From Candidatus Saccharimonadota bacterium (GTDB lineage Bacteria; Patescibacteriota; Gracilibacteria; BD1-5; UBA6164), in contig OZ245922.1 of NCBI GenBank assembly GCA_965229705.1, positions 1 to 32,000 on the forward strand: DNA of 32,000 nucleotides. The letters are read 5' to 3'. The notes beneath the pieces are model-generated. The model did no database searches. It was given only the letters and a program-made list of their open reading frames with translations, and was not told the DNA's origin. Position numbers and translations under genes: made by a program. Shown here one piece after another: positions 4,021 to 30,338 of this stretch (position 1 is the first letter of the stretch; the number at the start of each line of letters is the position of its first letter).

Positions 4021-5304
4021 ATGCAATACATTAAACATGACTTAGAACAAAGAGGTTTTCTTCATCAGACAACGCATGAAGAAGTATTTGAAAAGTTTGA
4101 GGGTGGTGGACAAAATTTTTATTTTGGTGTTGACTGTAGCGCTGATAGCATGACTATTGGAAACTTTGTGGCTCTTATGATGGCAATACACTTTATGATG
4201 AGAGGCAATAAGTGTTATCTCCTGGTTGGAGGAGCAACCTCAACTATAGGAAATCCGAGTGGAAAAGACAGTGAAAGACCTATCCTCACGCCAGAACAGT
4301 TAGAAAAAAATCAGGCAGGAATTACCCGACAATTTTCTCGTTTGGTAGATAATATCAAAGACCAAACCGGAAAAGTACTCCAATATGAGGTTGTGAATAA
4401 CTATGACTTTCATAAAAATATGACAAGTTTGGAGTATCTTCGAGAAGTATGACGCTACATGACCGTGAACTGGATGCTGTGAAAGGATATTGTGAAAAAC
4501 CGAGTCACTGATCCTGATAAATCCATTTCTTATGCAGAGTTTAGTTATATGCTCATTATGTGATACGACTATTATTATCTCTGGAAGCATCATGGAGTCA
4601 CTCTTGAGGTATGAGGAAGTGATGAGTGGGATGGGATACTCGCAGGTCTGGAACTCATCCATAAAAAAGATGGTGGTACAGCTTATGGTGTAACAAATAA
4701 ACTGATCACAGACGCAAATGGAAAAAAGTTTGGAAAGTCAGAGGGCAATGCTCTATGGCTTGATGAAAATAAAACATCACCATTTGAATTGTATCAATAC
4801 TTTATCAACACTCTTGATAATGATGTGGAAAAATATCTTCGTCTTTTGAGTTTTAAAACTCTTGAGGAAATAGGAGAGATATATCAAGAACATATGAAGC
4901 AGCCAGAGCTTCGTATGGGGCAAAAAGTTCTTGCTCGTGAAGCAGTCTCTCTGATACATGGATCGAGTATTGCAGAGTATTGTGAGAAAATCACAGAATT
5001 TCTTTTTGGAAAAGGGAACAAGATGGAGCTTCTTTCAGGGCTTGACTCAGAGCAATTTGAACTCTTTTTCAAAGAGATAGGAGGAGTAGCCTACAATGAT
5101 GATGTATCTCTTACACAGCTTTTTATCGATTCTGGTCTTGAGATATCTGTATCTTCAGCTACGAGGAGCGTGAGAGAAAATGGACTTTCAGTAAATGGAG
5201 AAAAGATTTCAGATTTTGAGGGAAGTATCGAAGCATATTTTTGACAAAGAAAATTTTTCTTACTAGGGAAGGGGAAGAAGAGTTTTAGGATAGTGAAGAG
5301 ATAG
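4021..5304 (+). CDS. tyrS: tyrosyl-tRNA synthetase
   Basis: One frame joins track ORFs 4021..4452 and 4789..5244 through TGA codons that fall on conserved Gly: LREV-G-RYMTVN, IM-G-YDYYYL, LEV-G-GSDEW. KFGKS loop present. The S4-like tail ..FFLLGKGKKSFRIVKR ends at TAG 5302-5304. Confidence 0.95.
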
Positions 5305-5366
5305 AAAAAATGCGTAAGAGACCAGTCTCGAGAAAATAAACATGCCTTTCTCAGAGGTTCCTTAAA
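5305..5366. repeat. truncated MITE-like repeat (A-type, one terminus only)
   Basis: GCGTAAGAGACCAGTCTCGAGAAAATAAACATGCCTTTCTCAGAGGTTCCTTAA matches the inner and terminal parts of the copies at 13460, 17061 and 22208. It starts directly after the tyrS stop. Confidence 0.7.
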
Positions 5367-5392
5367 AGTGTAATACATAACTCATATATGCT

Positions 5393-11778: not shown

Positions 11779-11818
11779 CATGCTACACTTGCAAATAATA
11801 TTTTTTCATCACTTTCTT

Positions 11819-12184
11819 ATGACTCTCAAACAACTTCTTCGTCTCACCGGTATTCCTGTATTACTTGCAAGTATGTGCTGTCTCTCACCACTGATCTTTT
11901 TCCTTTTATGAATCGTCTCATTGAGTGTTGCAACAGAGCTGGCAGAGCTCTTTTATGGAACATACAAGTGGGTGTTTCGATGAGTGGGACTTTTGTCACT
12001 CGTGTGAGCCTTATGATGGTATTTTTATACAAAAGGAGTTTGTACGCTCGACGCAGTAAAAAAACAGAGAAAAAAAGTCATAAATACTATTCTCCTCGTT
12101 TTCAGTGTATGAATCCTTGCCTATATATTCTTCCTCTATATAGTGGTACATTATATAGGTGTATGGTTAGATATTTGGAAATAA
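11819..12184 (+). CDS. small integral membrane protein with a vicinal Cys pair (MerT/MerC-like first helix)
   Basis: I read frame 2 codon by codon with five TGA=Gly. [31 protein letters not shown].., with 3-4 hydrophobic helices. Stop TAA 12182-12184. The overlapping track ORF 11875..12207 is in another frame and is not hydrophobic. Confidence 0.6.
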
Positions 12185-12203: not shown

Positions 12204-13463
12204 ATGAAACACACACATATTGACGCATTTGAAAATGCTCAAAAACAACTCAGACAAGCGTACGAACTCTATGACACGCAGCATATGTATCAAAATCATT
12301 ACCAGCGACTTCTACAGCCAAGACGTATTTTAGAGGTATATATTCCTGTCAAGATGGATGACGGGAATACTCAAGTTTTTCAGGCTTTTCGCTCTCAGCA
12401 TAATGATGCTCGCGGACCATTTAAAGGAGGGATACGATTTCATCAAGATGTGAATAGAGATGAAGTAAAGGCTCTTTCTCTGTGGATGACTTGTAAGTGT
12501 GCCGTGATAGATATTCCTCTCGGAGGGGGGAAATGATGAATCATTGTCAACCCAAAAGAACTTTCACAAACAGAGCTCGAACAACTCTCACGATGATATG
12601 TAAGAGAAATATATAAGTACATTGGTCCCGATATTGATGTTCCAGCCCCAGATGTAAATACAAATCCAAAAATAATGTCCTGGATGATGGATGAATATTC
12701 TCAACAGCGGGGAGTATATTCTCCATGAAGTTTTACGGGAAAACCTCTTTCTAGTGGAGGGTCAAAGTGACGATGATCAGCAACAGCTCAATGAGGAGTA
12801 TATGTTCTCGAAAAAATACTTGAATGACGAAATGAATCTCTTTCATGAAAAACCGTAGTGATTCAGTGAGCAGGAAATGCTGGTCTGACAGCTGCCAAGC
12901 TTTTAGAAGAGAGAGGAGCAAAAGTGATAGGGATTTCTGATTCACGAGGAGGAATATATAACCAGGAAGGGATAAATATAGAAAAAGTAAGCATGATGAA
13001 GTCCCAAAGAAAATCAGTTACAGATGATACTGATATGAGTATTTTATGAGAAAAAGAAGTGCTGGAATGCGCGTGTGATATTCTTATCCCTGCAGCTCTT
13101 GAAAATCAGATCACATCGGAAAACGCTGAAAACATCAAGGCAAAAATGATTCTCGAACTTGCAAATGGCCCTATCACTCCAGAGGCTGAAAGTATTTTAG
13201 AGCAAAAAAATATTCCAGTAATTCCTGATATCCTCGCAAACTCGTGAGGGGTAATGGTGAGCTATTTTGAGCAAGTGCAGAATAATATGAATTTTTATTG
13301 GGATGAACAAGAGGTAGATGCTCGACTCAAAACCAAGATACAACTCGCAGCATCAGATGTAGTAAGCCACGCGAAAGAGTATCAAACGAGCTATAGATCA
13401 GCAGCCTATATTGTTGCGATGAAGCGTATTTTTGCTGCTATGCAGGATAGATGAGAGTGTTAA
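12204..13463 (+). CDS. gdhA: glutamate dehydrogenase (Glu/Leu/Phe/Val dehydrogenase family)
   Basis: FKGGIRFH and PLGGGKGG (the last two Gly are TGA TGA, 12534-12539); Rossmann motif VIQGAGNAGL. It joins track ORFs 12204.., 13059.. and 13254... Stop TAA 13461-13463. Confidence 0.93.
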
Positions 13464-13546
13464 GGAGAATCTGAAAAATAAAAAAATCTTGTGTAAGAGA
13501 CCGGTCTCGAGAAAACAAAAATGCCTTTCTCGGAGCTTCCGTAAGG
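13460..13546. repeat. MITE-like repeat, short A-type (both termini present)
   Basis: TTAAGGAGAATCTGAAAAA ... GTAAGAGACCGGTCTCGAG ... TTTCTCGGAGCTTCCGTAAGG. The left terminus contains the gdh stop codon. Confidence 0.75.
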
Positions 13547-13577
13547 AAATTTTGAGAAACTTCTTAACTATAAATTT

Positions 13578-14924
13578 ATGCGGTATTTTCACCGATTTTC
13601 TCTTCCTGAAAAAATATCACTGAGTTTTTCCCTGTTTGCTTTTTTTTCATTGGTACTGTTCCTCTTACTGGTTAATATTACCTATTTTTTTATTTGGTAT
13701 AATGATCAAAAGCAACAAAGTTTTTCAGATATGGATATTACCTATAACTCTATGAACTTTTCTCAAGATCAAAAGAGCCGAGATGCTTTTCAGGCATATC
13801 TGATGACGCAAGACACTATGATCATTCCACAAAATGGTGAACTCATATGTTCTCCAAGCGTGAGCTCAAAAATCAAAGAAGCACCAGAAGAAATACAAGA
13901 TAGATATTTCTATAAAGATGGAGATACTACATATTTTATCTATTCAAAGTACTTTGAAGGTATAGGAGAAGTGAAAGTATTTTTTGATACGACGCAGTAT
14001 ATCAATGACCAAGTGACTATCATGAAGGTTTCTCTGATATTTATTTTGTTGATGTTCCTTGTACAATATGCAGCTGGAAAATATGTCACAAAAATTCTTC
14101 TTAGGCCTCTCAGGAGCTTTTCTCACGAAATACGAAATATAGATATTCATGCTCCGAAACAAGTTCTCACTTGTAACGAGCCACAGCATGATGAGCTCTA
14201 TATGCTGAAAGAGTCTTTTAATACTGCTCTTGAAAGTATTACTCATCAAACAGAAAAACTCAAGCAGTTTCTCACAGATGTGAGTCATGAGTTTAAAACA
14301 CCCTTGATGGTTATGAGTTCAAAGCTTGATCTTTTAGAAAAAAAAGCAGAAAAGCATAGAGGAAAAAAACTCGATATCGCAGCATATTTTTCTGAAAGTC
14401 GAAGAGAAATACACAAGATGAATAGTCTCTTAGAATCTCTTTTTCTTCTTTCTCGCGTGGAGGAAAACAAGATGTGTCTTATCACTCAAAAGCTCGAGGT
14501 GAGGAATATATTTTTGAGTGAATGTGAGACAATGAGACAAAAGTTTCCACATAAAAATATACAGATCAATATAGATATATCGGAGAGTCTCTACTACCAG
14601 CTAGAGGAAAGTACCTTTCGTGTATGTATTGCGAACTTGCTTTCAAATGCTTGTAAATTTTCTGGAGAAGAAGTGGCTTTAACAATACATGCAGATACTG
14701 ATACATTTTCTATTTGAGATAATGGTCGATGAATACTCTCTTGAGAAAGAGAGAAGATATGGCAAAAGTTTTATCGTCAAGATACCAAGATAGAGGGATT
14801 TGGTATTGGTCTGTACTTAGTAAAGCGTATAAGTGATATGTATGGATGGGAGATAGTTCTCTCAGAGAATACTTCTCAGGGAACGGTGTTTACATTTCTT
14901 TTGAAACATAATAATAAGATCTAA
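13578..14924 (+). CDS. sensor histidine kinase
   Basis: Track ORF 13578..14717 extended through TGA codons. Two N-terminal TM segments, H-box SHEFKTPL, ..IGDNGRGILSGEREKIWQKFYRQD.., G-box GFGIGLYLVKRI. Stop TAA 14922-14924. Confidence 0.85.
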
Positions 14925-14948
14925 ATATATATTTTTTTACACAATGAT

Positions 14949-15614
14949 ATGTCACATATACTCATCATAGAAGATCATACAGAGATCGCATCTAATATTC
15001 AGGAGTTTCTGGAGCTAGAATGATATAGGGTTTCTCATGCGCGTGATGGAGAACAGGGAATAGAAAAAGCTCTCAAAGAAGACTATGACCTTATTTTACT
15101 CGACCTTATGTTACCAGAAGTAGATGGGATATCAATAGCAAGAAAAGTCACACAGAGAAAAAATACTCCTATCATCATGATGACGGCAAAGTCATCTCTT
15201 CAAGAAAGACTTGCAGGCTTTGAGGTATGAGCGGTCGATTATCTGGTAAAGCCTTTTGATCTTTCAGAACTTCTGGCTCGTATACAGGTGCATTTACGAT
15301 ATAAAGACCGATGAACTTCATCATCTCCCTGACTTCATATTTCTTGAGTTGATATAAATATGAAGAAGCGAAAGTTTATGAGAGATAAGCAAGAGATTCA
15401 TCTAACACATAAAGAGTTTCTTATTATGGAAAAGTTGATTGAGAGTCGTGATCAGGTAGTATCTCGAAGTGATATTATAGAATACTTATGGTGATGAGAA
15501 GCATTGTTTGGGAGTGATAATAAGCTTGATGTGTATATATCAAATATTCGCACAAAACTTGGGAAGGAGTGTATAAGAACGATAAAGTGAGTGTGATATA
15601 TTCTTGGAGAGTAG
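14949..15614 (+). CDS. OmpR-family response regulator
   Basis: MSHILIIEDH.., LILLDLMLPEVDG, DYLVKPF. The winged-helix output domain ends ..YISNIRTKLG..IRTIKGVGYILGE. Stop TAG 15612-15614. Confidence 0.9.
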
Positions 15615-15640
15615 AGATAATTCAGTGTTCCCCTCCCTTA

Positions 15641-15748
15641 TTAAGAAGGCTCTGAAAAACGAAAATTTTTCAATCCACTCTGGCTCTATCGAGACATCTC
15701 TCCTTTGTAAAAGGAGAGATAAAAGGAGTTTTTCAGAACTTCCTTAAG
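15641..15748. repeat. MITE-like repeat, B-type (complete)
   Basis: TTAAGAAGGCTCTGAAAAAC..CAATCCACTCTGGCTCTATCGAGACATCTCTCCTTTGTAAAAGGAGAG..GGAGTTTTTCAGAACTTCCTTAAG. It has terminal inverted repeats and an internal hairpin. Confidence 0.75.
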
Positions 15749-15805
15749 TTTGTTTTAAGTCTGTTGTTATACAATTTTTTTGTATATTTTTATAACATAT
15801 ATTTT

Positions 15806-16348
15806 ATGCAAAAGCTCTATTATATTTGAGTATGTGGACTCTTGGTAACACTTGCATCGTGCACTACGCAGGATACTTCACAGGAAGAGGTTATTATACC
15901 TCAAGAAACTGTTTCGACAGAGATCAGGGAAACTGTTGTAGATCAGAAAGCTATGAAGGAGGAAGTTATGCAGCAAAAGCCAGTACAAGAACCACAAGTA
16001 TCACAGGTGGTATCTGAGACGCGATCAAAACTGTCAGAAACTCGCAGTGGTGTCTATGCTGAGTACAGTGAAGATGCTCTTACTCATGGAGGAGATACGG
16101 TACTTTTCTTTCATGCTGCGTGGTGTCCGAGCTGTCGAACTGCTGATGCAGCACTTTCTTCAGCGAAGATTCCTGCTGGTTTGAGTATTCTAAAAACAGA
16201 TTTTGATAGTCAGCGCACTCTGAGAAAAGAGTATGGGATTGTGAGTCAGCACACTTTTGTACATCTTGATAGTGAAGGAAACTTTGTGAAGAAATGGGTT
16301 GGAGGGAATAGTCTTGAGGGAATTGTTGAGCAGGTGAAGTCATTATAA
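15806..16348 (+). CDS. thioredoxin-fold lipoprotein (CxxC = WCPSC)
   Basis: MQKLYYIGVCGLLVTLASC (lipobox L-A-S-C), a low-complexity linker, then VLFFHAAWCPSCR. Same frame as track ORF 15842..16348. Confidence 0.8.
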
Positions 16349-16362
16349 CAAAGGAGTATATG

Positions 16363-16394
16363 AAAAGCCTCATCAAATGACGAGGCTTTTCTTG
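16363..16394 (+). terminator. intrinsic terminator
   Basis: AAAAGCCTC-loop-GAGGCTTTT followed by CTTGG. Confidence 0.5.
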
Positions 16395-16531
16395 GTAGAT
16401 GAATTTATTTCCCTTGAAACAATAGAGAGGAATCTGTTTTTCTCTTCCTTGTTACTATCGCGATTTTTTTCTCACTTTACTCTCAAATACTTATACATAT
16501 AATACGGAAGATATATCTCAAATCCCAAAAT

Positions 16532-17053
16532 ATGAAATCATTTTTTGCTATACTCCTCATCGTTTTCCTTGCCTCATGTGGATCTCAAACAAGTATCAAC
16601 CAAGAGAAAAATCCTCCAGAGATACTTACCCCTTCAGAAGAAAACCTTGCTCGAGAATATGAGGAACAAGAAAGCGATGACCAAACATGAGACTCAATGA
16701 GTCCAGAAACGCAAGAAGCTATTGATAGTGTTGTCTCAGACCTGATAAACACCGAGTCATCAATACCTCCCCGGCAAGAACTAACCGAAGAGTTTATTCC
16801 CCAAACCATCGAAAAAACTACCAGCTATAACAACCCAAAATGAAAAGTAGATATGAACATCAGCTATGTTCTCTGAGAAGATGGAACAATACAGTCTCTC
16901 TCTGTGACCTCACCAAATTATAGAGGTATGAAAAACTTTAATAAACAGGTGCAAGCAGTAATAGGTATGACAGAACAAGAAGCATCTGAGTTTTATGTTT
17001 CGGGAAGTTCACTAACAAATCCAGCATTTCAAGCTGCAATGAAACAGGACTAA
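16532..17053 (+). CDS. lipoprotein with a C-terminal FMN-binding-domain-like region (candidate ApbE substrate)
   Basis: MKSFFAILLIVFLASC (lipobox). C-terminus: ..KGKVDMNISYVLGEDGTIQSLSVTS..FYVSGSSLTNPAFQAAMKQD, which resembles the FMN_bind flavinylation region (..SGAT-type motif). Stop TAA 17051-17053. Confidence 0.6.
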
Positions 17054-17060
17054 AAAATAT

Positions 17061-17180
17061 CTTAAAGGAAGATCTGAAAAACTCCTTTTTGTTTTCTCGA
17101 AACCGGTCTCGAGTACTTATTTCAAGAGATTGAGACCGGTCTCTTACGCAAGATTTTTCTATTTTTCAGAACTCCCTTAA
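17061..17180. repeat. MITE-like repeat, long A-type (complete)
   Basis: CTTAAAGGAAGATCTGAAAAA ... TCTCGAAACCGGTCTCGAG ... GAGACCGGTCTC (17132-17143) ... TTTTTCAGAACTCCCTTAA. Confidence 0.8.
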
Positions 17181-17204
17181 TCAAACTTGTAGATACACAA
17201 CCTT

Positions 17205-18044
17205 ATGAGAATCAATCTCAAAAAACAATGTTTTGGTTCTCTCCTCGAAATACATGGAGAGTCTCAAGAAAATATCAATTCAGTCATTACTGAGTCATTT
17301 TCATACATAGATGACTTTGAACAAAAATATTCTCGCTTTATTTCTGGAAACTGGCTCTCAAAACTCAATAAGGGTAAGAAAGCATGACTCACAAAAGAGA
17401 TAAAAGCGATCATAGAACTCTCTCTCAAAGTTTCTCACCAAACAGAGGGGTATTATGATATCACGATATTACCACTTTTAGAAAATGCTGGTTACGGTAT
17501 ACAGAAGAAGAAAATTCCTGAAAATATTGGCTATAAAAATATTGTGATACATGGAGATATGATAATACTTTGATGAAATGTTTCTCTCGAGTTTGGGTCT
17601 TTTGGAAAATGATATATTGTTGATTATCTCTATAGGCTGCTCGAAAAACATTTCAAGTTTTGAGTGATAAACTTTGGTGGAGATATGAGAGTCATCGGAG
17701 AAAAAGATATTCATCTTGAAAATCCTGTAAAACTCTGAGAGTATATTGGAAAAACTTCTCTCAAAAATATGAGTATTGCCAGCTCAGCAGGAAATAGAAG
17801 AAAACTCCAAAAAGGCACACACCTACAGTTTCATAAAAAAGTTAGACAATGAGAACGAGTTCAGGCAACATATATCACGCACCAACTTTGTACCATGGCA
17901 GATATCTATAGTACCGCGCTCTTTGTATGTCCTTTTCAAAAAGCAGTACATATACTTGAGACGACTCACTGACTTGAGTGAATGATTATTTCAGAGACAG
18001 GAGAGATATACACAAGTACACATTTTGACTATTATCCTCAATAA
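17205..18044 (+). CDS. apbE: FAD:protein FMN transferase (ApbE family)
   Basis: I read it codon by codon. Motifs: GSFGKGYIVD, INFGGDMRVIG, SIASSAGN, MADIYSTALFV. An in-frame TAG at 17190 excludes a longer N-terminus. No signal-peptide-like segment. Stop TAA 18042-18044. Confidence 0.85.
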
Positions 18045-18053
18045 AATGCTCTT

Positions 18054-18677
18054 ATGAACCCAAAAACATTGATACAGCTCGGAAATATATTGTCACCAGT
18101 TTTTTTACTGATAGCCCCTCTCCTCTGGCTAGGAGTGAATTATTTTTGATTTTTGTATACTAGTTTTTTATGACTGACGATATATACATGGTTTTTTGCC
18201 GCGAGTTGGTATGCGGTTGTTTTTGTGATGATGATTCGCCCTCTTGCTGATCTATTTCCTAGCCACAAACTCTTTAGGAAATTGTGTCTTCTGCGTCGGG
18301 CTTTTGGTATCTTGTCGGCAACGATTATTCTTACGATACTTTTTTCAAATTGGTTCACTCTTACAGGATCTTTTTATGGATTTTTCTCGTGGTCTTCATG
18401 GTCTTTTGGATCCTCTCTTATAGCGAGAATGAGTGAAGTAACAGCAATCATACTTCTCATAACTTCAAATAACTTTTCTCAGAGACTGTTGAAGAAAAAC
18501 TGGAAGCGCATTCAGCGTTTGAGTTATATATATTTTCTTTCTTGAGGAATACTAGCAATGCGTTATGGAGATGAATATTTTGTGATGATCACGCTGGTGG
18601 CAACGCTTATACTCTTTTTGCTTGCTGAGGGGAAAAAACTTTGGAAGAAGTTTCAGACTTCTCGTATACGGGGGTAG
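18054..18677 (+). CDS. 6-TM MsrQ/YedZ (ferric-reductase-like) family-like membrane protein, apparently lacking the heme His ligands
   Basis: MIRPLADL.., LRRAFGILSATIILTILF, NWKRIQRLSYIYFLSGGILAM; six hydrophobic helices. Same frame as track ORF 18225..18545. Stop TAG 18675-18677. Confidence 0.6.
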
Positions 18678-18756
18678 ATTTTCTTCACTTTAATTTCTGG
18701 ATTTTTTAAAATTCAAAAATATACTGTCCCTATTCTTATTTTTTAAATGTAATACT

Positions 18757-19053
18757 ATGGATTTTACAAAAGATAATTTTTCATCAGAAACAGCAGAAGG
18801 TTTAGTACTTGTAGATTTTTGGGCAGAATGGTGTTGACCGTGTCAGGGGATGATGCCAGTTTTGGCTGATTTGGAAGCTACAGGAGTAAAGGTAGGAAAG
18901 GTCAATGTTGATACGCAGCCAGATCTTGCAGCTGAGTTCCGCGTTATGAGTATTCCCACTCTTGTATGGATGAAAGACGGAAAAGCAGTAGAACAAATGA
19001 TTTGAGCGCAAACGCTTGAGACGCTGAAAGAGGCTGCGCAGAAGCATAAGTAG
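18757..19053 (+). CDS. trxA: thioredoxin
   Basis: VLVDFWAEWCGPCQ, with the active-site Gly encoded by TGA 18835-18837; ..MSIPTLVWMKDGK... 98 aa. Stop TAG 19051-19053. Confidence 0.93.
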
Positions 19054-19076
19054 GATGTTTCCTATTTTCGCTATAT

Positions 19077-19112
19077 AAAAAGACCTAAGAGAATTTCTCA
19101 AAGGTCTTTTTT
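19077..19112. terminator. bidirectional intrinsic terminator (trxA / rplA)
   Basis: AAAAGACC..GAGAA-T-TTCTC..GGTCTTTT, with an A-run on the 5' side and a T-run on the 3' side. Confidence 0.6.
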
Positions 19113-19123
19113 GAAAAGTATTC

Positions 19124-19819
19124 TTATTTTTCGTCGGGATTCATATTGATCTTAATACCAGGTCCCATAGCGTTACATACAACTACAGAATTGATATATT
19201 TTCCTTTTGCACCAGAAGGTTTCACATCACTGATAATCTGTAAAAAAGCTTCAAGGTTTTCTATGAGTTTTTCTTTTCCAAAAGAGAGTTTTCCAAAAAC
19301 AGAGTGTACATTTCCTTGCTTATCCGTCTTGAACTCAAACTTTCCTCCGGCAATATCAGTAATAACCGCTACAAGATCTTCTCCGACAGTTCCTGTTTTA
19401 GGATTTGGCATCAGTCCTTTTGGACCAAGTACTCGAGCAATCTTCCCAAGATGTTTCATCATAGACGGTGTAGCAACACAGACATCAAAATCAAGAGCTC
19501 TTTTCCCAGCAGCAATATCAGAGATCAGTTCTTCACCACCCGCAACATATGCTCCAGCTTTTGTGAGATCTGTGCTACTGATAGTATCAGAAAATGCACA
19601 AACTTTCGCTGTTTTTCCGGTTCCATGTGGAAGCTTTGTAGTGGTTCGGATCATTTGGTCTTGATGTTTTGGATCAAGGTTGAGATTAAAGTGTATTTCT
19701 ACAGTGGGATCAAACTTGACCGTATTTGTTTGTTCGAGAAGCTCAACAGCTTCTTCAGGAGTGTATGACATTCCTTCTTTGAGAAACTGCATAGCTTGTT
19801 TATATTTTTTTCCTGCCAT
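19124..19819 (-). CDS. rplA: 50S ribosomal protein L1
   Basis: Within track ORF 19124..19930. The start is placed at MAGKKYKQAMQFL (ATG 19819), as in L1 homologs. ..LPHGTGK.., GPKGLMPNPKTGTV. Confidence 0.95.
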   Translation of the reverse strand: MAGKKYKQAMQFLKEGMSYTPEEAVELLEQTNTVKFDPTVEIHFNLNLDPKHQDQMIRTTTKLPHGTGKTAKVCAFSDTISSTDLTKAGAYVAGGEELISDIAAGKRALDFDVCVATPSMMKHLGKIARVLGPKGLMPNPKTGTVGEDLVAVITDIAGGKFEFKTDKQGNVHSVFGKLSFGKEKLIENLEAFLQIISDVKPSGAKGKYINSVVVCNAMGPGIKINMNPDEK

Positions 19820-19948: not shown

Positions 19949-20188
19949 TTATTTCTCCACCGGATCATATCCTCCCTTATTCCACGGCATACATCGACAT
20001 ATACGACAGATTCACATGAGCGTTCACCGAAAAACTCATTTTTTCTCCAAGGCTTCTATCATATACTGGCTACATGTTGGAAAATGCTTACAATACGGAG
20101 CTCTATCCATGCTTTTTGCCCAAAAACTATGATCAGGAGACAGAAGTTTTTGGTAGAGTTTCACGAGAGATATGAGAATATGTTTCAT
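19949..20188 (-). CDS. yidD: membrane protein insertion efficiency factor YidD
   Basis: Reverse translation with TGA=Gly; 240 nt. [57 protein letters not shown]. The antisense track ORF 19871..20344 is rejected. Confidence 0.85.
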
Positions 20189-20214
20189 TTTATGGATGCT
20201 ATTTCTATTTTGAA

Positions 20215-20476
20215 TTTTTTTTTACTCCCTTCCTTTTTTGCTAAAAGGAAGGGTTGGGGATGGAATAAGTGTATCAATTCCTATCTTGAATTCTTTCCTT
20301 TGTTCTCAAAGGAAAGAGGCTGCAGACTTTCTATCAAGTTTTGAGCCCTCCTCCTTTTTTGCTAAAAGGAGGAGATTCAGAGGTGGAATAAGTAATATGT
20401 TTTCTCAATTCCTATCTTGAATTCTTTCTTGCTTTCCTCGCTCCCTTCTTTTTTTGCTGAAAGGAAGGGTTGGGGA
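20215..20476. repeat. tandem array of three hairpin-containing repeat units
   Basis: Units at 20215-20260, 20336-20383 and 20431-20476: CTCCCTTCCTTTTTTGCTAAAAGGAAGGGTTGGGGATGGAATAAGT and variants. The sub-repeat CAATTCCTATCTTGAATTCTTTC occurs at about 20265 and 20396. Confidence 0.7.
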
Positions 20477-20578
20477 TGGAATAAGTACAACACTTCCAGG
20501 ATATTCAGAAGAGAAATGTATTTTTATTTATAAAAAAAATAACTACACTAGAAATATATCTATTTTAGCAAAAAATCA

Positions 20579-21193
20579 ATGATAGCATATATTACAGGAA
20601 AAATTATTGATATATCTGAAAGTACCATACTCATACTTCCAGCAACAGGAGTATGATACGAGATAGGTATTTCATCTCTCAGCTACGGAAATCTTGTTAT
20701 GTCTGACGAGGCTTCTCTCTATCTATATCATCATATCACAGAATGATGACAGGGACTTTTTGGTTTTGAAAGTCTTGAAGAAAAGATGCTTTTTAGTGAA
20801 CTGATAAAAATCTCGTGAGTATGAGGAAAAGTCGCACTCCAAATACTTTCTCTATGAAAAAATAGACTCATAGAAGCTATAATATCAGAAGATAGAAAAA
20901 CCATAGAAGGGATAAAAGGGATAGGAAAAAAAATGGCAGAAAAAATAGTCCTCGAACTCAAAGACAAAGACTTCGTAAAAACATATCATATACAAAACAG
21001 GTCTTCTGAGAAGCTGGTAGATGATCAAGGTATAGGTCATATATTGCCAGCAGATATGCGAGAAAATATTGCTATGACACTCCAAAACATGTGATACCAG
21101 TCTCGCGACATACACAGAGCTATGCAAAACATCCCAGCAAACCTAGAGACTCTCGAGGATATACTTCCATATATGATACGAGAATTGAGTTAA
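20579..21193 (+). CDS. ruvA: Holliday junction branch migration protein RuvA
   Basis: MIAYITGKI.., GVGYEIGIS, LFGFES, ISGVGGKVALQILS, GIKGIGKKMAEKIVLELKDK. Stop TAA 21191-21193. Confidence 0.88.
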
Positions 21194-21210: not shown

Positions 21211-22212
21211 ATGAATATATCCATATTTGCTTCTGTTTGATGCCAAAATCTTGGTGATGAGCTCATCGTGAAAAATGAGCTAGAGTTACTGCGTAAGGAG
21301 TTTTGAGATGACGCGCAATTTTTTATTGCCTCTTATGATGTGAAGAATCCTTTTTTTCAACAAAAATGAGTTCAGTATTTTGAGTATTTTCCTTTTTGAT
21401 CTAAAAACCCAAGAAATTTTTTTAGGAATATTCGCAATTTTTTTATCTTTTTAAAAGTTATTTCCAAGAGTGACAGAGTCGTTATAGGTGGATGAGGAAT
21501 CATGTATGATAAGGAAAACCAGTCAGTAAAAAATCCTCTGGATCAATGGGTGTTTCGCGCGAAAATTGCAAGATTTTTTTGAAAAAAAATCTACTTTTAT
21601 GCTCTCTGAATAGATGTGAGAGATTCAAAAAATATAAAAAAACTCAAAAGTATTTTTTATAAAGCTTGGAAAGTCACCGTGAGAGATAAAAAGTCTCAGG
21701 GTATATTGCAAGATATATGAGTCTCATCTCAGGTAGTACCAGATCCGGTTATGCAAGAGGGGGAGTGGTGAGGAGAAATTTTATGAAAGCTGTCTTCAAG
21801 AGATTTTACACTCAAAGATCTTGTAAAACATGATTTTAGAGGGAAGAGAGTTGGTCTTGCACTTCGATCAGGCTATCTTGGAAAATCAGGAAATCCAAAC
21901 ATAGAAACGCTTCTCATAGAAGAGTTGTGTCAGCATATTGAAAATGCTGGAGGGAGCATTCTCTTTCTTCCGCAGAGTTTTCACACTCGAGATATTTTGG
22001 CAAATGATGCGATATTTTTACAGCAATTTCTCAAACCTGGAAGAGAGATATGTATGAGTATGGGAGAGGTGTATACGATATACTCACACAAAATGGTGAG
22101 TATAGTTATCTCAATGCGTTTGCACAGCATGATACTTGCTTATGTGTATGGTATCAACCAGATTGCTCTAAGCTATTCACAAAAAACGGAGGAGTTTCTC
22201 CGTATTTCCTAA
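21211..22212 (+). CDS. polysaccharide pyruvyl transferase family protein (CsaB-like)
   Basis: NLGDELIV.., VVIGGGGIMYD.., ISMRLHSMILAYVYGINQIALSYSQKTEEF. Same frame as track ORF 21925..22212. The stop TAA 22210-22212 lies inside the next repeat. Confidence 0.7.
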
Positions 22213-22331
22213 GGAATCTCTGAGAAAGGCATTTTTATTTTCTCAAGACCCCGGTCTCGAGTTACTTATTTCAAGGACTTGAGACCGGTCTCTTACACAA
22301 GATTTTTCTATTTTTCAGAGTCTCCTTAAGG
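22208..22331. repeat. MITE-like repeat, long A-type (complete)
   Basis: CCTAAGGAATCTCTGAGAAA ... GACCCCGGTCTCGAG ... GAGACCGGTCTC (22281-22292) ... TTTTTCAGAGTCTCCTTAAGG. Confidence 0.8.
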
Positions 22332-22336
22332 ATAAT

Positions 22337-23213: not shown

Positions 23214-23312
23214 AATTTATTTTTTACAATCTAAAAATACTCAATAAGCGTATCATAGATTTTTCTCTCATGCAAATATTGGTACAAGTTTCCCCTAAAT
23301 TACAGTTTTATA

Positions 23313-23422
23313 CCTAAAAGAATCTCTGAAAAACAAAAAATTTCTAATCCTCTCTGGCTCTAGCGAGCCATCTCTCCTTTGAAAAAGGAGAGAAAAAAGG
23401 AGTTTCTCAGAGCTTCCTAAAG
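23313..23422. repeat. MITE-like repeat, B-type (complete)
   Basis: CCTAAAAGAATCTCTGAAAAAC..AATCCTCTCTGGCTCTAGCGAGCCATCTCTCCTTTGAAAAAGGAGAG..GTTTCTCAGAGCTTCCTAAAG. Confidence 0.75.
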
Positions 23423-23482
23423 TGATGGAGGTATATCAGATAAAACCTCTCTTTTTGTATGAAGAGAGGGTAGTAGGGCACT

Positions 23483-24772
23483 GTTTCAAAAAAGTGTGTA
23501 AAATAAGAGATAAAAAAATAAGGTATGTATGCAAATATGTACCTTATTTTTTTAATCCCTTAGGATATGGAAACTATATTGCAAAGATTAAAAAGCACAA
23601 TAGAGAGTGCTATATACGAAGAATTTGAGGATTTTGTATCACGAGTAGATGTGTATAAGAACGGAACTCGTAAGATACGCCCTAAAACCTACTTTGGTCG
23701 TATGGATTTAGAAATACCTCGTACCCGTTGAAAAAAAGAAGAAGGCACAGTGTTTTTTTCTGAAATAAAAGCAAAAACACTCGAACAAATATTCGATACC
23801 ATTTGGAGTCAGATACTTGGTCTGATGCGATTATGAAATACTTTTGAAGATATAAGACAGTATTTTACAGAAGTATATGGTTTTGGATTTTCTAATGATT
23901 TGCTCTCAAAAATATCAGCGTATATGATGAACTTCTGGGTTTCAAGTCAAGAACCTTACTTAATTTTTACACAATAGTATATCTGGATGCTACCTATATA
24001 AAGATGAAGGTTGAGAGTCATAGTGGCAGAAGCTGTATTAAAAGTGTGCCAGTATATTTCATCATCTGAGTAAATATATACGGAGAAAAAGATATTTTAG
24101 ACTTTGTGGTGATGCAAAAACCAGAATCATCAGCTGTATGGCAAGAAATTATAAATAGTATAAAAAATCGAGGCGTAGATGATATTCTCATAGCTTGTGT
24201 TGATGGACTGGCCGGATTTCAAGAAGCAATACAATCTTGTTTTCCGAACACTCAAGTTCAGCCCTGTATCGTGCACAGAGTCAGAAACCTTCTCCAGTCC
24301 ATTTCATACAAAGATAAAACAGAATTTTTTATGGAGTTTAAGAAAGTGTATAACGCTGTTTCTCAAGAGGAGGCTCTCAAGTTTTTAGAGGCTATGAAGC
24401 AGAAATGGGAAAAATATAGTATCTTGCTTCAGGAATGGTTTTATAATATTGATGTATGGGGAGGGTATTTTAAATATTCTTATCCTCTCAGAAAGCTTAT
24501 ATATTCTACGAATGTGATTGAGAATTTTAATGGACTTATTAAATCTAATATTTGAAAAAGAAGAGTATACTTTACTCAGAGATCTGCTGAAATATCTATA
24601 TTTCTTGCAGTACAGAATAAACAAAAATCTCTCAAAAAAGTACGTGATTTTCATTCATTAAGAATGGAACTCGTAGCTTTCTTTTGAGAAAAAAGAATTC
24701 CTGTTCTGTAAATTTTTATTACAATAATTTACATACATACCTCATATCTATTTTTACACACTTTTTCAGAAC
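23483..24772 (+). mobile_element. IS256-family insertion sequence (about 1.29 kb)
   Basis: Imperfect terminal inverted repeats. Left: GTTTCAAAAAAGTGTGTAAAATAAGAG..AAGGTATGTATGCAAAT. Reverse complement of right: GTTCTGAAAAAGTGTGTAAAAATAGAT..GAGGTATGTATGTAAAT. They enclose one transposase gene. I saw no clear target-site duplication. Confidence 0.75.
23567..24711 (+). pseudogene. IS256-family (mutator-type) transposase interrupted by a -1 frame change
   Basis: The N-terminal part runs in frame 2 from ATG 23567 (..NGTRKIRPKTYFGRMDLEIPRTRG..DIRQYFTEVYGFGFS..NFW) and hits TAG 23975-23977. The remainder is in frame 1, open from 23896 (..KSRTLLNFYTIVYLDATYIKMK.., ILIACVDGLAGFQEAI..CIVHRVRN.., IYSTNVIENFN). 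Stop TAA 24709-24711. The most parsimonious join is near TTCTGGGTTTCAAG (23933-23946). Confidence 0.75.
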
Positions 24773-26957: not shown

Positions 26958-28046
26958 TTATTCAAACATCTTTTTATACTCCTCATACCCTTCTTGTTCC
27001 AAATCCTCAACTGGAACAAACCTCAAAGCTGCAGAGTTGATACAATGACGAATCCCTCAAAGCTCATCGGGCGCATCAGAAAAAATATGCCCCAAGTGCG
27101 CATCGGAAGAACGACTCCTCACCTCTGTGCGAGTCATAAAAAATCGCGTATCTGTATGAGTGGTAACCACATCATCTGAAAGAGCGCGAGTAAAGCTGGG
27201 CCATCAAGTTCATGAATCAAACTTATCCAAAGAACTATATAAAGGTGTTCCATCAATAATATCTACATATATCCCTGCTCGTTTATTGTCCCAGTACTCA
27301 TTTTGAAATGCTCGCTCCGTCCCCTCTTCTTGCGTCACATGATATTGGAGAGGTGTAAGCCTTTTCCTAAGAGCCTCATCGCTATAGGTATCTTGCGTCA
27401 GTTTGGCTATTTCTTGTCTCCAGTTCTCCTCGATAAATCCAGCTCTTCCGGATCACTTTTTGTAGAGATTATACCGAAGAGCTGATTTTTTATAATAATC
27501 TTGATGATACGATTCCGCGAGATAAAACTCTGGTGTCTTCAGTATCTCGGTTACAATCTCTTGTTCAAATTTCCCAGACTCAGCAAGAGCTATCTTTGAC
27601 GCCTCAGCTATCTGCCTTTCCTCATCATCACTCACATATATCGCTGTGGTATATTGGTAGCCCTTGTCCGCAAACTGACCGTCTGGATCAGTCGGATCGA
27701 TTTGTGTCCAAAAAAGCTCTACAAGAGTAGCATAAGAAATACTCTCAGGATCATAGCTCACTCGAACTGCCTCTCGATGCTGTGTTTCTCATGATGCTAC
27801 CTGCGTATAATTTGCTGAATCAGCACTTCCTCCTATATACCCTGACTCTGCTGCGTACACTCCGTCTTGCGCTTCAAATATGCCTTCCATACACCAAAAA
27901 CAACCTCCAGCAAAATAGGCATATTTCTGTTCTCCTTTTATTTGTGAACTATCTTTTTTCATATCAGCCGTACTCAGAAAATATTGAGATCAAACAAGGA
28001 AACATATGATGACGAAGATTCCTCATAAAGAAAGTATTTTTTTCAT
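26958..28046 (-). CDS. msrAB: membrane-anchored bifunctional methionine sulfoxide reductase MsrA-MsrB
   Basis: 1089 nt in one frame. N-terminal anchor: [23 protein letters not shown]. MsrA: [15 protein letters not shown] (track ORF 27453..27761 is the core). MsrB: ..[50 protein letters not shown]. Stop TAA 26958-26960. Confidence 0.9.
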
Positions 28047-28055
28047 AATATAACA

Positions 28056-30338
28056 TTATGGAAGTATCAGATTTTCTCCATGACTTGCAACAAGAGAAAA
28101 CCACATCTCAAAATATCAAGGGATTTCCTGAGGATTTTGAGAGCTTGATACAGATGCAAGACCTGTATCAAAGCGAGCTGTATACCTCACTCATTCATGC
28201 TCTATTGTTGACTCTCATGACGCTCAGAGTTCTTCCCATGGAAATCATAGTACTATATCTCCATCTCGCACGACATAAAAAAGCTTTTTTGGATGATAGC
28301 TCATATCCCTCTCTCATCATACAGGGAAATAGAGGTCTTCACTCTCATCATAGTTTCCATATGGTATTTCTCCATATCTTCGGAGATATCCTGTCTCATT
28401 TGAGAGCACTTCACCCTCTGGAAAGAGTCTCTGATACTCACTATAACTCATCAGATCTGTATCAATTATCTTCAGCTGTTTCCCTATATTATCTCCTATC
28501 AATGCTTTTCACTCACTCTGACTCCAGAGCGTTTCTGTTTGTGAATCATACATGAGCAAATTAGAGTTATAGAGTTGTCCAGAGACACCAAAGTGTACTT
28601 CTTGGTCATCGATAACTCTCTCATATACGATACCCGAACCACACAGTGGGCAAAAAGTAACAGCAACTTTTTTTCCAGCAAAATCATCATTTACAATCTC
28701 GTGCCATACCAAAACATCATAACCGTAAAATCGCGCATTATTATCTTCATCAACAAGTACAAGTCCTAAATCATCATCTCCGAGATATGCTGACTTTTCT
28801 GCTACTTCTCTATGGTTCAAAAACTTTGGTGCTCGAATGGCAGGAATACCATCTTTTCATGGTCATCCATCAAGAACGAGCTGGAGGTCAATAAGAGTTT
28901 TTGCCGTATTTGTTTGAAGTCCTTGACGCGAAAAGTGATATTCTCCTTCTCATAAAGTACTCATCTCTTCTCTAGGATTACCAGTATCTATTAGGGAAGT
29001 ATCTTCTTGTTTTTCTTTTATGAGGCGTATGATCTCTTGTCGTTTTTCCTCGTATCATCATTCTCAAAAATGCGTGTAGCGAATATTTCCTGTATGGTCT
29101 ATGAGATAAAAAGCTGGCCAGTACTTATTGTTATATGCCTTCCAAGTTGCAAAGTCATTATCTTGCGCAACCGGAAAACCAATTTCATATCTTTCTACGG
29201 CTTTTTGTACTTCTTGAAGTTTTTTCTCATACGCAAACTCTGGCGAATGAATCCCGATAACTCTCAATCCTTGGCTATAAAATTCTTCAAAAAGTGCTTG
29301 TGTCTGCTTGTGAGTATTGATACAGTTTACGCAGCTTGCTGTCCAAAACTTGATCATCACAATGTTTCATCTCAACTCAGAGAGACTTGATATTTTTTCT
29401 GCGTTTATCCATCCAGTCAATCAACGAAAATCAGGAGCTGTATATCCTGATACGCTCTCTGATTTTCCTTCTAACAGGTGCTCAGGATCTAAAAAAGAAA
29501 GCGATCACTCTATATGTTTTTCACAGCTTCCATCACGACACTCGGAGTGTAGAGGTTTATCATTTTGAAGAGTTTTTTGTTCAGAGGATAGTGTTGGCTC
29601 AGTATTTCATATATCAAATTCTTCTATGATTCTCTGTTCAAATCCTGTAGTATTGAGAAATCCAGCATCGAGTAGAGCTATTTCTATTTTTTTATCATAG
29701 CCGGTCAGTATAGCGATACCGACACATATAAAGACAATTCATAATATTTTTTTAAATATTCCGTCTGGTTTACTTGCCCATGTGAGTCTCCTGACAAGTG
29801 ATTGACCAAATATCGCAATAGCGAAAAGGATGACTGCGAGTCAGAGGGTATAGGATATCAGAGCCAAAAATCAAAATGCAAATCCTACTGGAAGAATAAT
29901 TGTCAGTATCAGGGCGTAGGTCGGAGAACAACTACTAAATACTGGACCAAGTGCAAACCCCATAAAAATATATTTTGATATACCTTGTTTTTCTTGTGTT
30001 TTATGAAGAAGGGTATTTGATGTTCCTGTAAATCAGAGTTTTGTAGAAATATATTTCCAAGTATTTGGAAAAAGCGTGATAATACCAAGCGAGATAACAA
30101 TTCATCCTGAAAAAGTTTTCCAAAAACTTGGAGGAACATCTATGAGAATGGTACTCGCTTTTAAAAGAAGGGAGAAAATGATGATCGAGATACTCAGCGA
30201 AGCAATAATCACTATGGGAATGCGTTTGTTGTTTCCGTCTTCGGCACTAGCTCAGAGGATAATTGGGAGGAGAGGAAGGACGCATGGAGCGAGAACGGTT
30301 AGTACTCAGGAGAAAAAGGCAATAATGAGAAGCGTCAT
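28056..30338 (-). CDS. DipZ-like tri-domain fusion: CcdA/DsbD-type transmembrane domain + TlpA/ResA-type thioredoxin domain + DUF3179 domain
   Basis: I translated all 761 codons with no TAA/TAG until 28056-28058; an in-frame TAA lies just upstream of ATG 30338. CcdA: VLTVLAPCVLPLLPIILG and PVFSSCSPTYALIL. Trx: MIKFWTASCVNC (track ORF 29064..29360). Junction: RYTHFGEGGYEEKRQEIIRLI. DUF3179: LDGGPGKDGIPAIRAPKF, VTFCPLCGSGIVYE, LYNSNLLMYDSQTETLWSQ, YFEMWFSLVASHGENLILP (track ORFs 28509..28820 and 28317..28502). Confidence 0.8.

Follow-up and report, generated by a model that had tools for sequence, protein, structure and literature searches.

The closest described relatives of the system reported here are the MsrQ-like clusters, defined by an apbE gene, a gene for a flavin mononucleotide (FMN)-binding protein and one for a PF01794 protein, often with an NAD-binding domain (Meheust et al. 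2021, eLife, PMC8238504). In that survey, which filtered on signal peptides and Pfam matches, extracytosolic flavinylation was strikingly underrepresented in the Candidate Phyla Radiation (CPR); it is also the only publication we found that pairs Gracilibacteria, Patescibacteria or CPR with ApbE or flavinylation. Here we analyze a 32,000-nucleotide stretch of a Gracilibacteria genome (contig OZ245922.1, positions 1 to 32,000; hereafter the window) in which an ApbE gene lies between genes for a lipoprotein (g2) and a six-transmembrane (TM) protein (Mem), close to genes for thioredoxins and a two-component system. We consider it probable, including the mechanism proposed below, that these genes represent two adjacent extracytoplasmic redox modules. 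The g2, ApbE and Mem genes (16532-18677) would form a flavin module, a version of the MsrQ-like (NOX/STEAP-type) flavinylation-associated electron-transfer system that is specific to CPR and escapes Pfam. The other would be an ordinary thiol and methionine-sulfoxide (Msr) repair module, comprising a histidine kinase (HK), a response regulator (RR) and a thioredoxin-like (Trx-)lipoprotein (13578-16348) together with CcdA-TlpA-DUF3179 and MsrAB proteins (26958-30338, minus strand).

The CPR module resembles the MsrQ-like class in combining apbE, an FMN-binding gene and a six-TM ferric-reductase-type protein, often with an NAD-binding reductase, an arrangement for which cytosol-to-surface electron transfer has been proposed (PMC8238504). 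The published clusters are mostly actinobacterial, with PF01794 and PF04205 matches and conserved heme histidines, whereas here the matches fall below Pfam threshold and the histidines are missing; moreover, the CPR reductase is N-terminal or separate, a 4Fe-4S ferredoxin is added, and ApbE carries no signal. An apbE gene, an FMN-binding gene, an MsrQ-like gene and an exported component (g2, by its lipobox) are accordingly recognizable at remote homology only. The CPR module matches the published class in logic, not in detectable signatures, and the window copy is atypical in being reductase-less.

Other described systems share individual features. Escherichia coli MsrQ (YedZ) with Fre, and the NOX/STEAP proteins, have the same six-TM fold, an N-in orientation and an FNR-type reductase partner, but Mem lacks heme-ligating histidines and is associated with ApbE and a predicted flavinylated lipoprotein. 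The Listeria monocytogenes system (FmnB/ApbE, PplA) likewise belongs to a monoderm-type cell, places an ApbE-type flavinylation site on a surface lipoprotein, clusters it with ApbE and offers a plausible outlet for cytoplasmic reducing power; its Ndh2, quinone, EetA/EetB path, lipoprotein ApbE and dedicated flavin exporter have no counterpart here. In the sister lineage Absconditabacteria/SR1, Vampirococcus lugosii encodes a tripartite YedZ-like, iron-binding and FNR protein (Vamp_33_45), conserved in SR1 and proposed as a new kind of translocator, for electrons or protons, in a cell that lacks a respiratory chain (Moreira et al. 2021, PMC8080830). It too joins a YedZ-like domain to iron-binding and ferredoxin-reductase-like NAD-binding domains; however, its order is TM, rubredoxin-like, FNR, it has eight TM segments and no link to ApbE or a flavinylated lipoprotein, and the window Mem has no reductase domain. 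Finally, the cytoplasmic ApbE of Klebsiella pneumoniae is equally without a signal peptide (PMC12052999), but its substrate is a cytoplasmic soluble fumarate reductase, whereas the candidate substrate here has a lipoprotein signal.

The g2-ApbE-Mem flavin module

Translated with table 11, the region falls into fragments; table 25, in which UGA encodes Gly, yields five clean plus-strand genes, and open reading frames (ORFs) of at least 80 aa sum to 24962 aa in the window, against 7135 aa under table 11. The UGA codons in ApbE, Mem, RR and HK coincide with near-invariant Gly residues of code-11 orthologues (ApbE G136, 40/42; RR G94, 13/13; HK G385, 14/14) and almost never with Trp. Judging from these alignments, table 25 is therefore the correct code for the window. 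The nearest Mem-encoding loci are labelled 'Candidatus Gracilibacteria'. Once UGA is read as Gly, the five co-oriented genes proposed by a first-pass annotation, made from the letters alone, are recovered at their coordinates. Three of them form the flavin module:

16532..17053, + strand: g2, a lipoprotein with an acidic disordered linker and a C-terminal FMN_bind-type domain (LASC lipobox, profile matches, hhalign)
17205..18044, + strand: ApbE, an ApbE-family flavin adenine dinucleotide (FAD):protein FMN transferase without a signal peptide (PF02424, triad alignment, upstream in-frame stop)
18054..18677, + strand: Mem, a six-TM, N-in member of the ferric-reductase-domain (MsrQ/NOX/STEAP) superfamily (remote homologues, AlphaFold2 model, Foldseek)

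The identity of ApbE is secure. PF02424 is matched at E 7.6e-34 (117.9 bits against a cutoff of 25.6) over profile positions 12-265 of 266, and Ser194, His210 and the Asp of MADIYSTA align with Ser257, His273 and Asp301 of FmnB (7esa), the residues named as catalytic in a recent review (PMC12052999). An in-frame TAG stands 15 nt 5' of the ApbE ATG.

Behind its canonical lipobox, the g2 protein has an acidic, disordered linker (~75 residues) and then a conserved 84-residue domain at the C-terminus, whose S157-G158-S159-S160-L161 does not vary in a family of 21 relatives. Searched against 1.84 billion representatives, a profile of this domain retrieved 170 proteins; the multi-domain proteins among them (E 9e-9 to 2e-4) contain 3-7 tandem PF04205 FMN_bind domains at Pfam E values of 1e-48 to 1e-102. 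The VSGSSL of g2 aligns with the VSGATMT of FMN_bind domains, and a comparison of the g2 family with canonical FMN_bind by hhalign returns the same register (probability 96.3%, E 1.7e-9). Within S157-G158-S159-S160, Ser160 (codon 17009-17011), the predicted flavinylation site, occupies the column of the flavinylated Thr in SGAT. Among 125 full-length members this column holds Ser in 121 and Thr in 4, and a lipobox is found in 112. An NCBIfam scan of g2 gave no usable match. The AlphaFold2 model of the domain (pLDDT 94.7) has three strands followed by helices, with the motif loop ahead of the last helix; structure prediction took the database sequence (UGA read as Trp) as first row, which differs from the table-25 residues. 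On the profile evidence, g2 is a divergent, lipoprotein-anchored FMN_bind domain, as the first-pass annotation had proposed for its C-terminus, and Ser160 is its likely site of flavinylation.

Mem has no Pfam match, falling short of the PF01794 threshold; its sole NCBIfam match is MsrQ (E 0.038, 13.5 bits against a cutoff of 130), and its profile found nothing relevant among PDB sequences. Its 120 homologues are mostly from CPR, many with the JGI label 'YedYZ heme-binding membrane subunit', and phmmer connects it to two distant proteins, P0082 and P0144, that both pass PF01794. AlphaFold2 predicts a bundle of six long helices (pLDDT 92.9), for which the top Foldseek matches, all weak, are STEAP2, STEAP1 and the NOX5 TM domain (E 0.26-0.45, TM-score 0.43-0.52), and the charge distribution places both termini and two basic loops inside. 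Given its PF01794-positive homologues, the MsrQ match and the STEAP/NOX-like six-helix fold, Mem belongs to the ferric-reductase-domain superfamily. In the topology read from sequence, the cytoplasmic face carries every residue that is invariant in the family (R62, P63, R81, G85, S88, S138, N139, K151, Q154, Y158 and F161) as well as the near-invariant T137, W150 and Y160. Cytoplasmic-face motifs (RPLA..., RR.xG, TS..., W..xQ/H..Y) are presumably shared with E. coli MsrQ. Flavinylation of Mem itself at T137-S138-N139 was considered and set aside, because the same motif occurs in E. coli MsrQ, which is not known to have a link to ApbE. No MsrP (YedY) partner was recognized among the neighboring genes, for which no dedicated search was run.

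To place the module in context, we assembled 83 loci, of which 80 with Mem relatives came from GTDB species genomes and three from an exact-protein look-up, and annotated their neighbors with hidden Markov models (HMMs) built from the window and its relatives. The genetic code of each locus was set by Mem HMM score; an ORF-length ratio was dropped because it misclassified loci. The code-25 set comprises 26 non-redundant loci and the code-11 CPR set 51. In 21 of the 26 code-25 loci Mem makes up the C-terminal part of a larger protein (~500 aa); the fusions examined start with a single-cluster 4Fe-4S ferredoxin (Fer4_13), after which come FAD_binding_6 and NAD_binding_1. The gene immediately upstream of Mem is ApbE in 15/24 code-25 loci, and g2 precedes ApbE in 15/23. 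Code-11 loci show the order ApbE-Mem-FNR: ApbE is the neighbor of Mem in 37/48, an FNR-type gene of its own (233 aa) follows downstream in 29/47, and an RR-HK pair is often transcribed divergently. These loci include Paceibacterota, Moraniibacteriota, Kaiserbacteria, Saccharibacteria, Minisyncoccia and others. By these database labels, a module of ApbE, ferric-reductase-domain membrane protein and reductase occurs in Gracilibacteria, Absconditabacteria and at least six other CPR groups. Synteny over the 83 loci shows that the conserved core is g2-ApbE-Mem with NAD(P)H/ferredoxin input. The trans-membrane electron route of the first-pass annotation is compatible with these data, since most relatives fuse Mem to a ferredoxin and an FNR-type NAD(P)H reductase. 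Solo Mem proteins form a subclade comprising the window, L001/L006, L004 and L005; because the otherwise syntenic L010 retains the fusion, the reductase was lost in the window's subclade.

A small protein of 77-195 aa accompanies 36 of the 41 code-11 loci with ApbE, either adjoining ApbE or sitting just past the adjacent RR-HK pair (e.g. L018:4565-4948, L013:4529-4948, L020:2073-2510(-) and L003:5269-5793(-)). Its N-terminus is a hydrophobic anchor, a low-complexity linker follows, and the extreme C-terminus is conserved as ...K(K/P)SR(R/Q/K)(T/S)(R/K/H)AS; two representatives scanned had no Pfam match. By its sequence, this tail resembles the [S/T]GA[S/T] flavinylation motif, and the protein appears to take the place of g2; ORFs ending in [ST]xA[ST] number 46 of 3864.

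The adjoining thiol and methionine-sulfoxide repair genes

Surface methionine-sulfoxide repair by CcdA, Etrx and MsrAB is known from Gram-positive bacteria such as Streptococcus pneumoniae. The remaining genes of interest in the window comprise a system of this kind and TrxA:

13578..14924, + strand: sensor HK with two TM segments, HAMP, HisKA and HATPase_c (Pfam)
14949..15614, + strand: OmpR-family RR (Pfam)
15806..16348, + strand: Trx-lipoprotein with a LASC lipobox and WCPSC at codon 16124 (Pfam Thioredoxin, 30.9 bits against 23.5)
18757..19053, + strand: cytoplasmic thioredoxin TrxA, WCGPC (TIGR01068, 102.8 bits against 96.8)
26958..28046, - strand: membrane-anchored MsrA-MsrB fusion (MsrAB), an extracytoplasmic methionine sulfoxide reductase (PMSR and SelR)
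28056..30338, - strand: CcdA (DsbD_TM)-TlpA/AhpC-TSA-DUF3179 triple fusion of 760 aa, a trans-membrane thiol electron carrier (Pfam; DsbD_TM borderline at 26.6 bits against a cutoff of 27.1)

The profile matches bear out the first-pass assignments of a WCPSC lipoprotein, a canonical TrxA and an upstream HK and OmpR-type regulator. As in the Gram-positive systems, a CcdA-type carrier, a CxxC thioredoxin-fold lipoprotein and a membrane-anchored MsrA-MsrB are present, colinear in relatives; unlike them, CcdA is here fused to TlpA-like and DUF3179 domains, the cluster is split and partly inverted, and it follows HK and RR. DUF3179 is either fused to CcdA-TlpA or encoded by its own gene in relatives.

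On three long contigs (L084-L086), the homologues of the Trx-lipoprotein sit in a colinear run of GDH, HK, RR, Trx-lipoprotein, CcdA-TlpA(-DUF3179) and MsrAB, 40-72% identical to the window proteins. The GDH, HK and RR orthologues span 49-72% (HK 49-54%, RR 59-62%), the CcdA fusion is 57-66% identical to the genes directly downstream of the Trx-lipoprotein, and MsrAB is 61-64% identical to that of L084/L085. In the window, the GDH-HK-RR-Trx-lipoprotein run is followed by the flavin module, with a synteny break between 16348 and 16532, and the CcdA-TlpA-DUF3179 gene and, directly downstream of it, MsrAB lie at 26958-30338 on the opposite strand. Since their orthologues are colinear with CcdA-TlpA and MsrAB in relatives, HK, RR and the Trx-lipoprotein belong to a conventional CcdA/surface-thioredoxin/MsrAB repair system; the earlier suggestion that HK and RR are candidate regulators of the flavin cluster is not supported. 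TrxA is a housekeeping neighbor and the likely donor to CcdA, as thioredoxin is in established DsbD/CcdA systems. It stands downstream of Mem in only 3 of the 26 code-25 loci (the window, L005 and L010), its start overlapping the Mem stop in L005, and the Trx-lipoprotein accompanies the flavin module in this window only; no other code-25 locus has an Msr, CcdA or GDH gene within 6 kb of the flavin module. Of the synteny expected by the first-pass annotation, the g2-ApbE-Mem trio is therefore upheld, while the two thioredoxins are not part of it. In relatives, the flavin module instead adjoins genes read as ribosomal-protein genes (L10, L7/L12), and here rplA.

Several neighboring features deserve description in their own right. 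At 23567-24711 (+), two adjacent ORFs, in translation the apparent halves of a mutator-type transposase, stand between both halves of the split cluster. A second type of two-component system, with the order RR then HK (L086:10663-12519, L001:14020-16636(-) and L031:1483-3634), recurs near fasciclin-domain genes, MsrAB or g2-ApbE-Mem in Gracilibacteria; it is 28-32% identical to the window pair, as measured for L086. Between genes read as RNase R and GDH, 11780-12184 (+) encodes a small membrane protein that contains a CC pair and matches MerT weakly (18.8 bits, below cutoff), and a gene with such a weak match also occurs near the ApbE module in L003. At 20172-20585 (+), upstream of a gene read as ruvA, two near-identical stretches ~216 bp apart translate to 'LLKGRVGDGIS', which suggests another small intergenic repeat.

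The spacers themselves measure 24 bp (HK-RR), 191 bp (RR-Trx-lipoprotein), 183 bp (Trx-lipoprotein-g2), 151 bp (g2-ApbE), 9 bp (ApbE-Mem) and 79 bp (Mem-TrxA); the g2-ApbE gap is 2-32 bp in relatives. A search of the upstream regions for a shared regulator-binding motif yielded instead an intergenic repeat resembling a miniature inverted-repeat transposable element (MITE), 107-118 bp long, with 19-bp terminal inverted repeats (TTAAGGAAGxTCTGAAAAA ... TTTTTCAGAACTYCCTTAA) and an internal GC palindrome (GAGACCGGTCTC). The window holds at least six copies, forming three pairs of subtypes, and eight matches to the terminal repeat against 0.13 expected:

13460-13570: MITE-like repeat of this family
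15641..15747: MITE-like repeat in the RR/Trx-lipoprotein spacer, same family
17063..17180: MITE-like repeat in the g2/ApbE spacer, with 19-bp terminal inverted repeats
near 5240-5369, 22200-22333 and 23300-23425: related MITE-like copies (repeat search)

The best promoter-like site lies just upstream of g2, and a hairpin with a T-run coincides with the Mem stop; counts of promoter-like and terminator-like sites are close to the shuffled expectation, which makes these a weak hint only. Rfam, including its permissive mode on 15500-19200, returned no riboswitch or known RNA.

Proposed mechanism and its rivals

In the proposed mechanism, ApbE would move FMN from FAD onto Ser160 of g2, and Mem would link a cytoplasmic NAD(P)H/ferredoxin reductase to the flavin of the surface-tethered g2. 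The reductase partner would be the domain fused to Mem in most Gracilibacteria and the product of a separate gene in other CPR; it is absent from the window. On its long acidic leash, the g2 flavin may hand electrons to an external acceptor, by analogy with PplA in Listeria, and the module would then act as an outlet for the reducing equivalents of a fermentative cell. The repair module would presumably be fed by cytoplasmic thioredoxin, and the adjacent two-component system is its probable regulator. In this reading, a rearrangement has parted the two halves of the repair module in this genome and brought the flavin module, TrxA and rplA to the side of the first.

A number of observations weigh against this reading. 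ApbE proteins typically, though not universally, carry a lipoprotein or secretion signal. An N-terminal hydrophobic segment is wanting in 60 of 61 ApbE orthologues, and the sole exception looks like a longest-ORF artefact; in the same test all but two of the g2 controls score as lipoprotein signals, those two resembling longest-ORF extensions. With a signal-less ApbE and a lipoprotein as its candidate substrate, the two partners are predicted to lie on opposite sides of the membrane; signal-less cytoplasmic ApbEs are known, and these act on cytoplasmic targets (PMC12052999). An FNR-like ORF that might provide the electron donor is found nowhere in the 32 kb of the window, and co-transcription past ApbE-Mem is uncertain because the spacers contain MITE-like inserts and terminator-like hairpins. 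For g2, a direct Pfam scan had no match even at E up to 1 (PF04205 included), a null result on which the first-pass domain call would have fallen and which the profile evidence overturns. The g2 profile found nothing relevant among PDB sequences, and Foldseek of the g2 model against PDB had no match at E below 0.03, with IscU at the top; since these matches are non-significant, the fold is left out of the case for g2. Compared with D-x-x-[S/T]-G-A-[S/T], the g2 family has Asp at position -6 in 0/125 members, and the Ala at -1 is usually replaced by Ser or Gly (Ser in the window). A D-to-A change in the flavinylation motif is reported to have minor effects, and Ser to be a poorer acceptor than Thr (PMC12052999).

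The heme ligands of Mem also count against it. The His columns of P0082 and P0144 (TM3 and TM5) correspond to Ile95 and Leu167 in the window Mem, and 0 of 80 module Mem proteins, reductase fusions included, have His in either; the window Mem contains a single His, which is not conserved, and 13 of the 16 homologues closest to it lack His altogether. With both canonical columns empty, the usual electron path of the superfamily cannot operate. The Mem family here departs from the flavinylation-associated MsrQ-like proteins, of which conserved heme histidines are a feature (PMC11334425). The MsrQ/YedZ-like assignment of the first-pass annotation holds for superfamily and helix number; the absence of heme ligands and of an ApbE signal peptide weakens the mechanism it proposed. 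Mem positions 52 and 125 (window codons 18207-18209 and 18426-18428) form a covarying outer-leaflet pair, Trp/Arg in 22 of 27 code-25 proteins and, in code-11, His/His (20), Phe/His (13), Leu/Pro (10) or Leu/His (7). The idea of a bis-His heme site moved to this pair was rejected as a family feature, as His/His is found in only 20 of 53 code-11 proteins and in no code-25 protein.

Three other explanations were weighed. That all five genes form a single system, in which electrons pass from Mem through flavinylated g2 to the Trx-lipoprotein or Msr enzymes with TrxA as cytoplasmic donor and HK/RR as regulator, is the view closest to the first-pass annotation, which had them feeding thiol or Msr chemistry; we regard it as very unlikely. 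The genes are co-oriented and adjacent, TrxA follows Mem closely in three loci (overlapping it in L005), hybrid thioredoxin/flavinylation systems are known from DsbD-DUF3570 clusters (PMC8238504), and a two-component system adjoins ApbE-Mem-FNR in at least 13 code-11 CPR loci and in L031. However, the Trx-lipoprotein joins the flavin module here alone, its orthologues sitting with CcdA/TlpA/MsrAB; Msr and CcdA genes are missing near the module in all other code-25 loci, as is TrxA from 23 of the 26; the synteny break falls between 16348 and 16532, relatives placing the flavin module beside genes read as ribosomal-protein genes; and surface thiols are already served by a complete CcdA route encoded in the window.

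Mem might alternatively serve flavin logistics rather than electron transfer, exporting FAD/FMN or docking the signal-less ApbE at the membrane. The loss of heme ligands in 80/80 Mem copies, the missing ApbE signal peptide and the position of the conserved residues on the cytoplasmic face, the side on which flavin nucleotides are bound in related proteins, would all fit such a role, and extracytosolic flavinylation elsewhere is reported to need a dedicated flavin exporter (PMC9973259). It is nevertheless unlikely, given that the ferredoxin and NAD(P)H reductase fused or adjacent in most loci argue for redox input and that Foldseek of Mem gave no transporter-like match. The genes of the window's subclade could also be a non-functional, decaying remnant left by the loss of the reductase domain, with ApbE perhaps a cytoplasmic FAD pyrophosphatase or acting on another cytoplasmic target, as some known cytoplasmic ApbEs do (PMC12052999). 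All three ORFs are intact in four genomes, with Mem copies 50-58% identical, the window Mem retains every family-invariant residue, g2 its lipobox and SGSS, and ApbE its triad. These features make decay quite improbable, against the missing ferredoxin-FNR part in the window, L001/L006, L004 and L005 (present in the syntenic L010), the want of an FNR-like ORF, the MITE-like insertions in spacers and a degenerate ApbE 'HHIIDP' region (THLQFHKK in the window).

A bolder version of the two-module reading, which we rate as rather unlikely, holds that CPR, unable to make heme, rebuilt the NOX/STEAP/MsrQ conduit around a covalently tethered flavin. The histidine-less heme pocket of the ferric-reductase fold would be served by FMN borne on a partner, which in Gracilibacteria would be the lipoprotein FMN_bind domain and in other CPR the short signal-anchored protein, whose C-terminal ...SR(R/Q)(T/S)RAS could be a natural flavin tag. 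The signal-less ApbE would install the flavin in the cytoplasm before the C-terminus of its substrate is exported. If true, this would provide a heme-free, quinone-free path for NAD(P)H electrons to the cell surface.

Implications for CPR biology

CPR/Patescibacteria have been described as lacking respiratory chains, and a widespread flavin module is now seen there. Screens that rely on Pfam would overlook it, given that two of the three signature proteins score below threshold and its ApbE is signal-less. For the window itself less follows: its thioredoxin genes and two-component system go with CcdA/Msr repair and not with the flavin module. If functional, the flavin module would give fermentative symbionts a surface outlet for reducing equivalents, and would offer a naturally occurring case in which a ferric-reductase-fold protein functions without heme.

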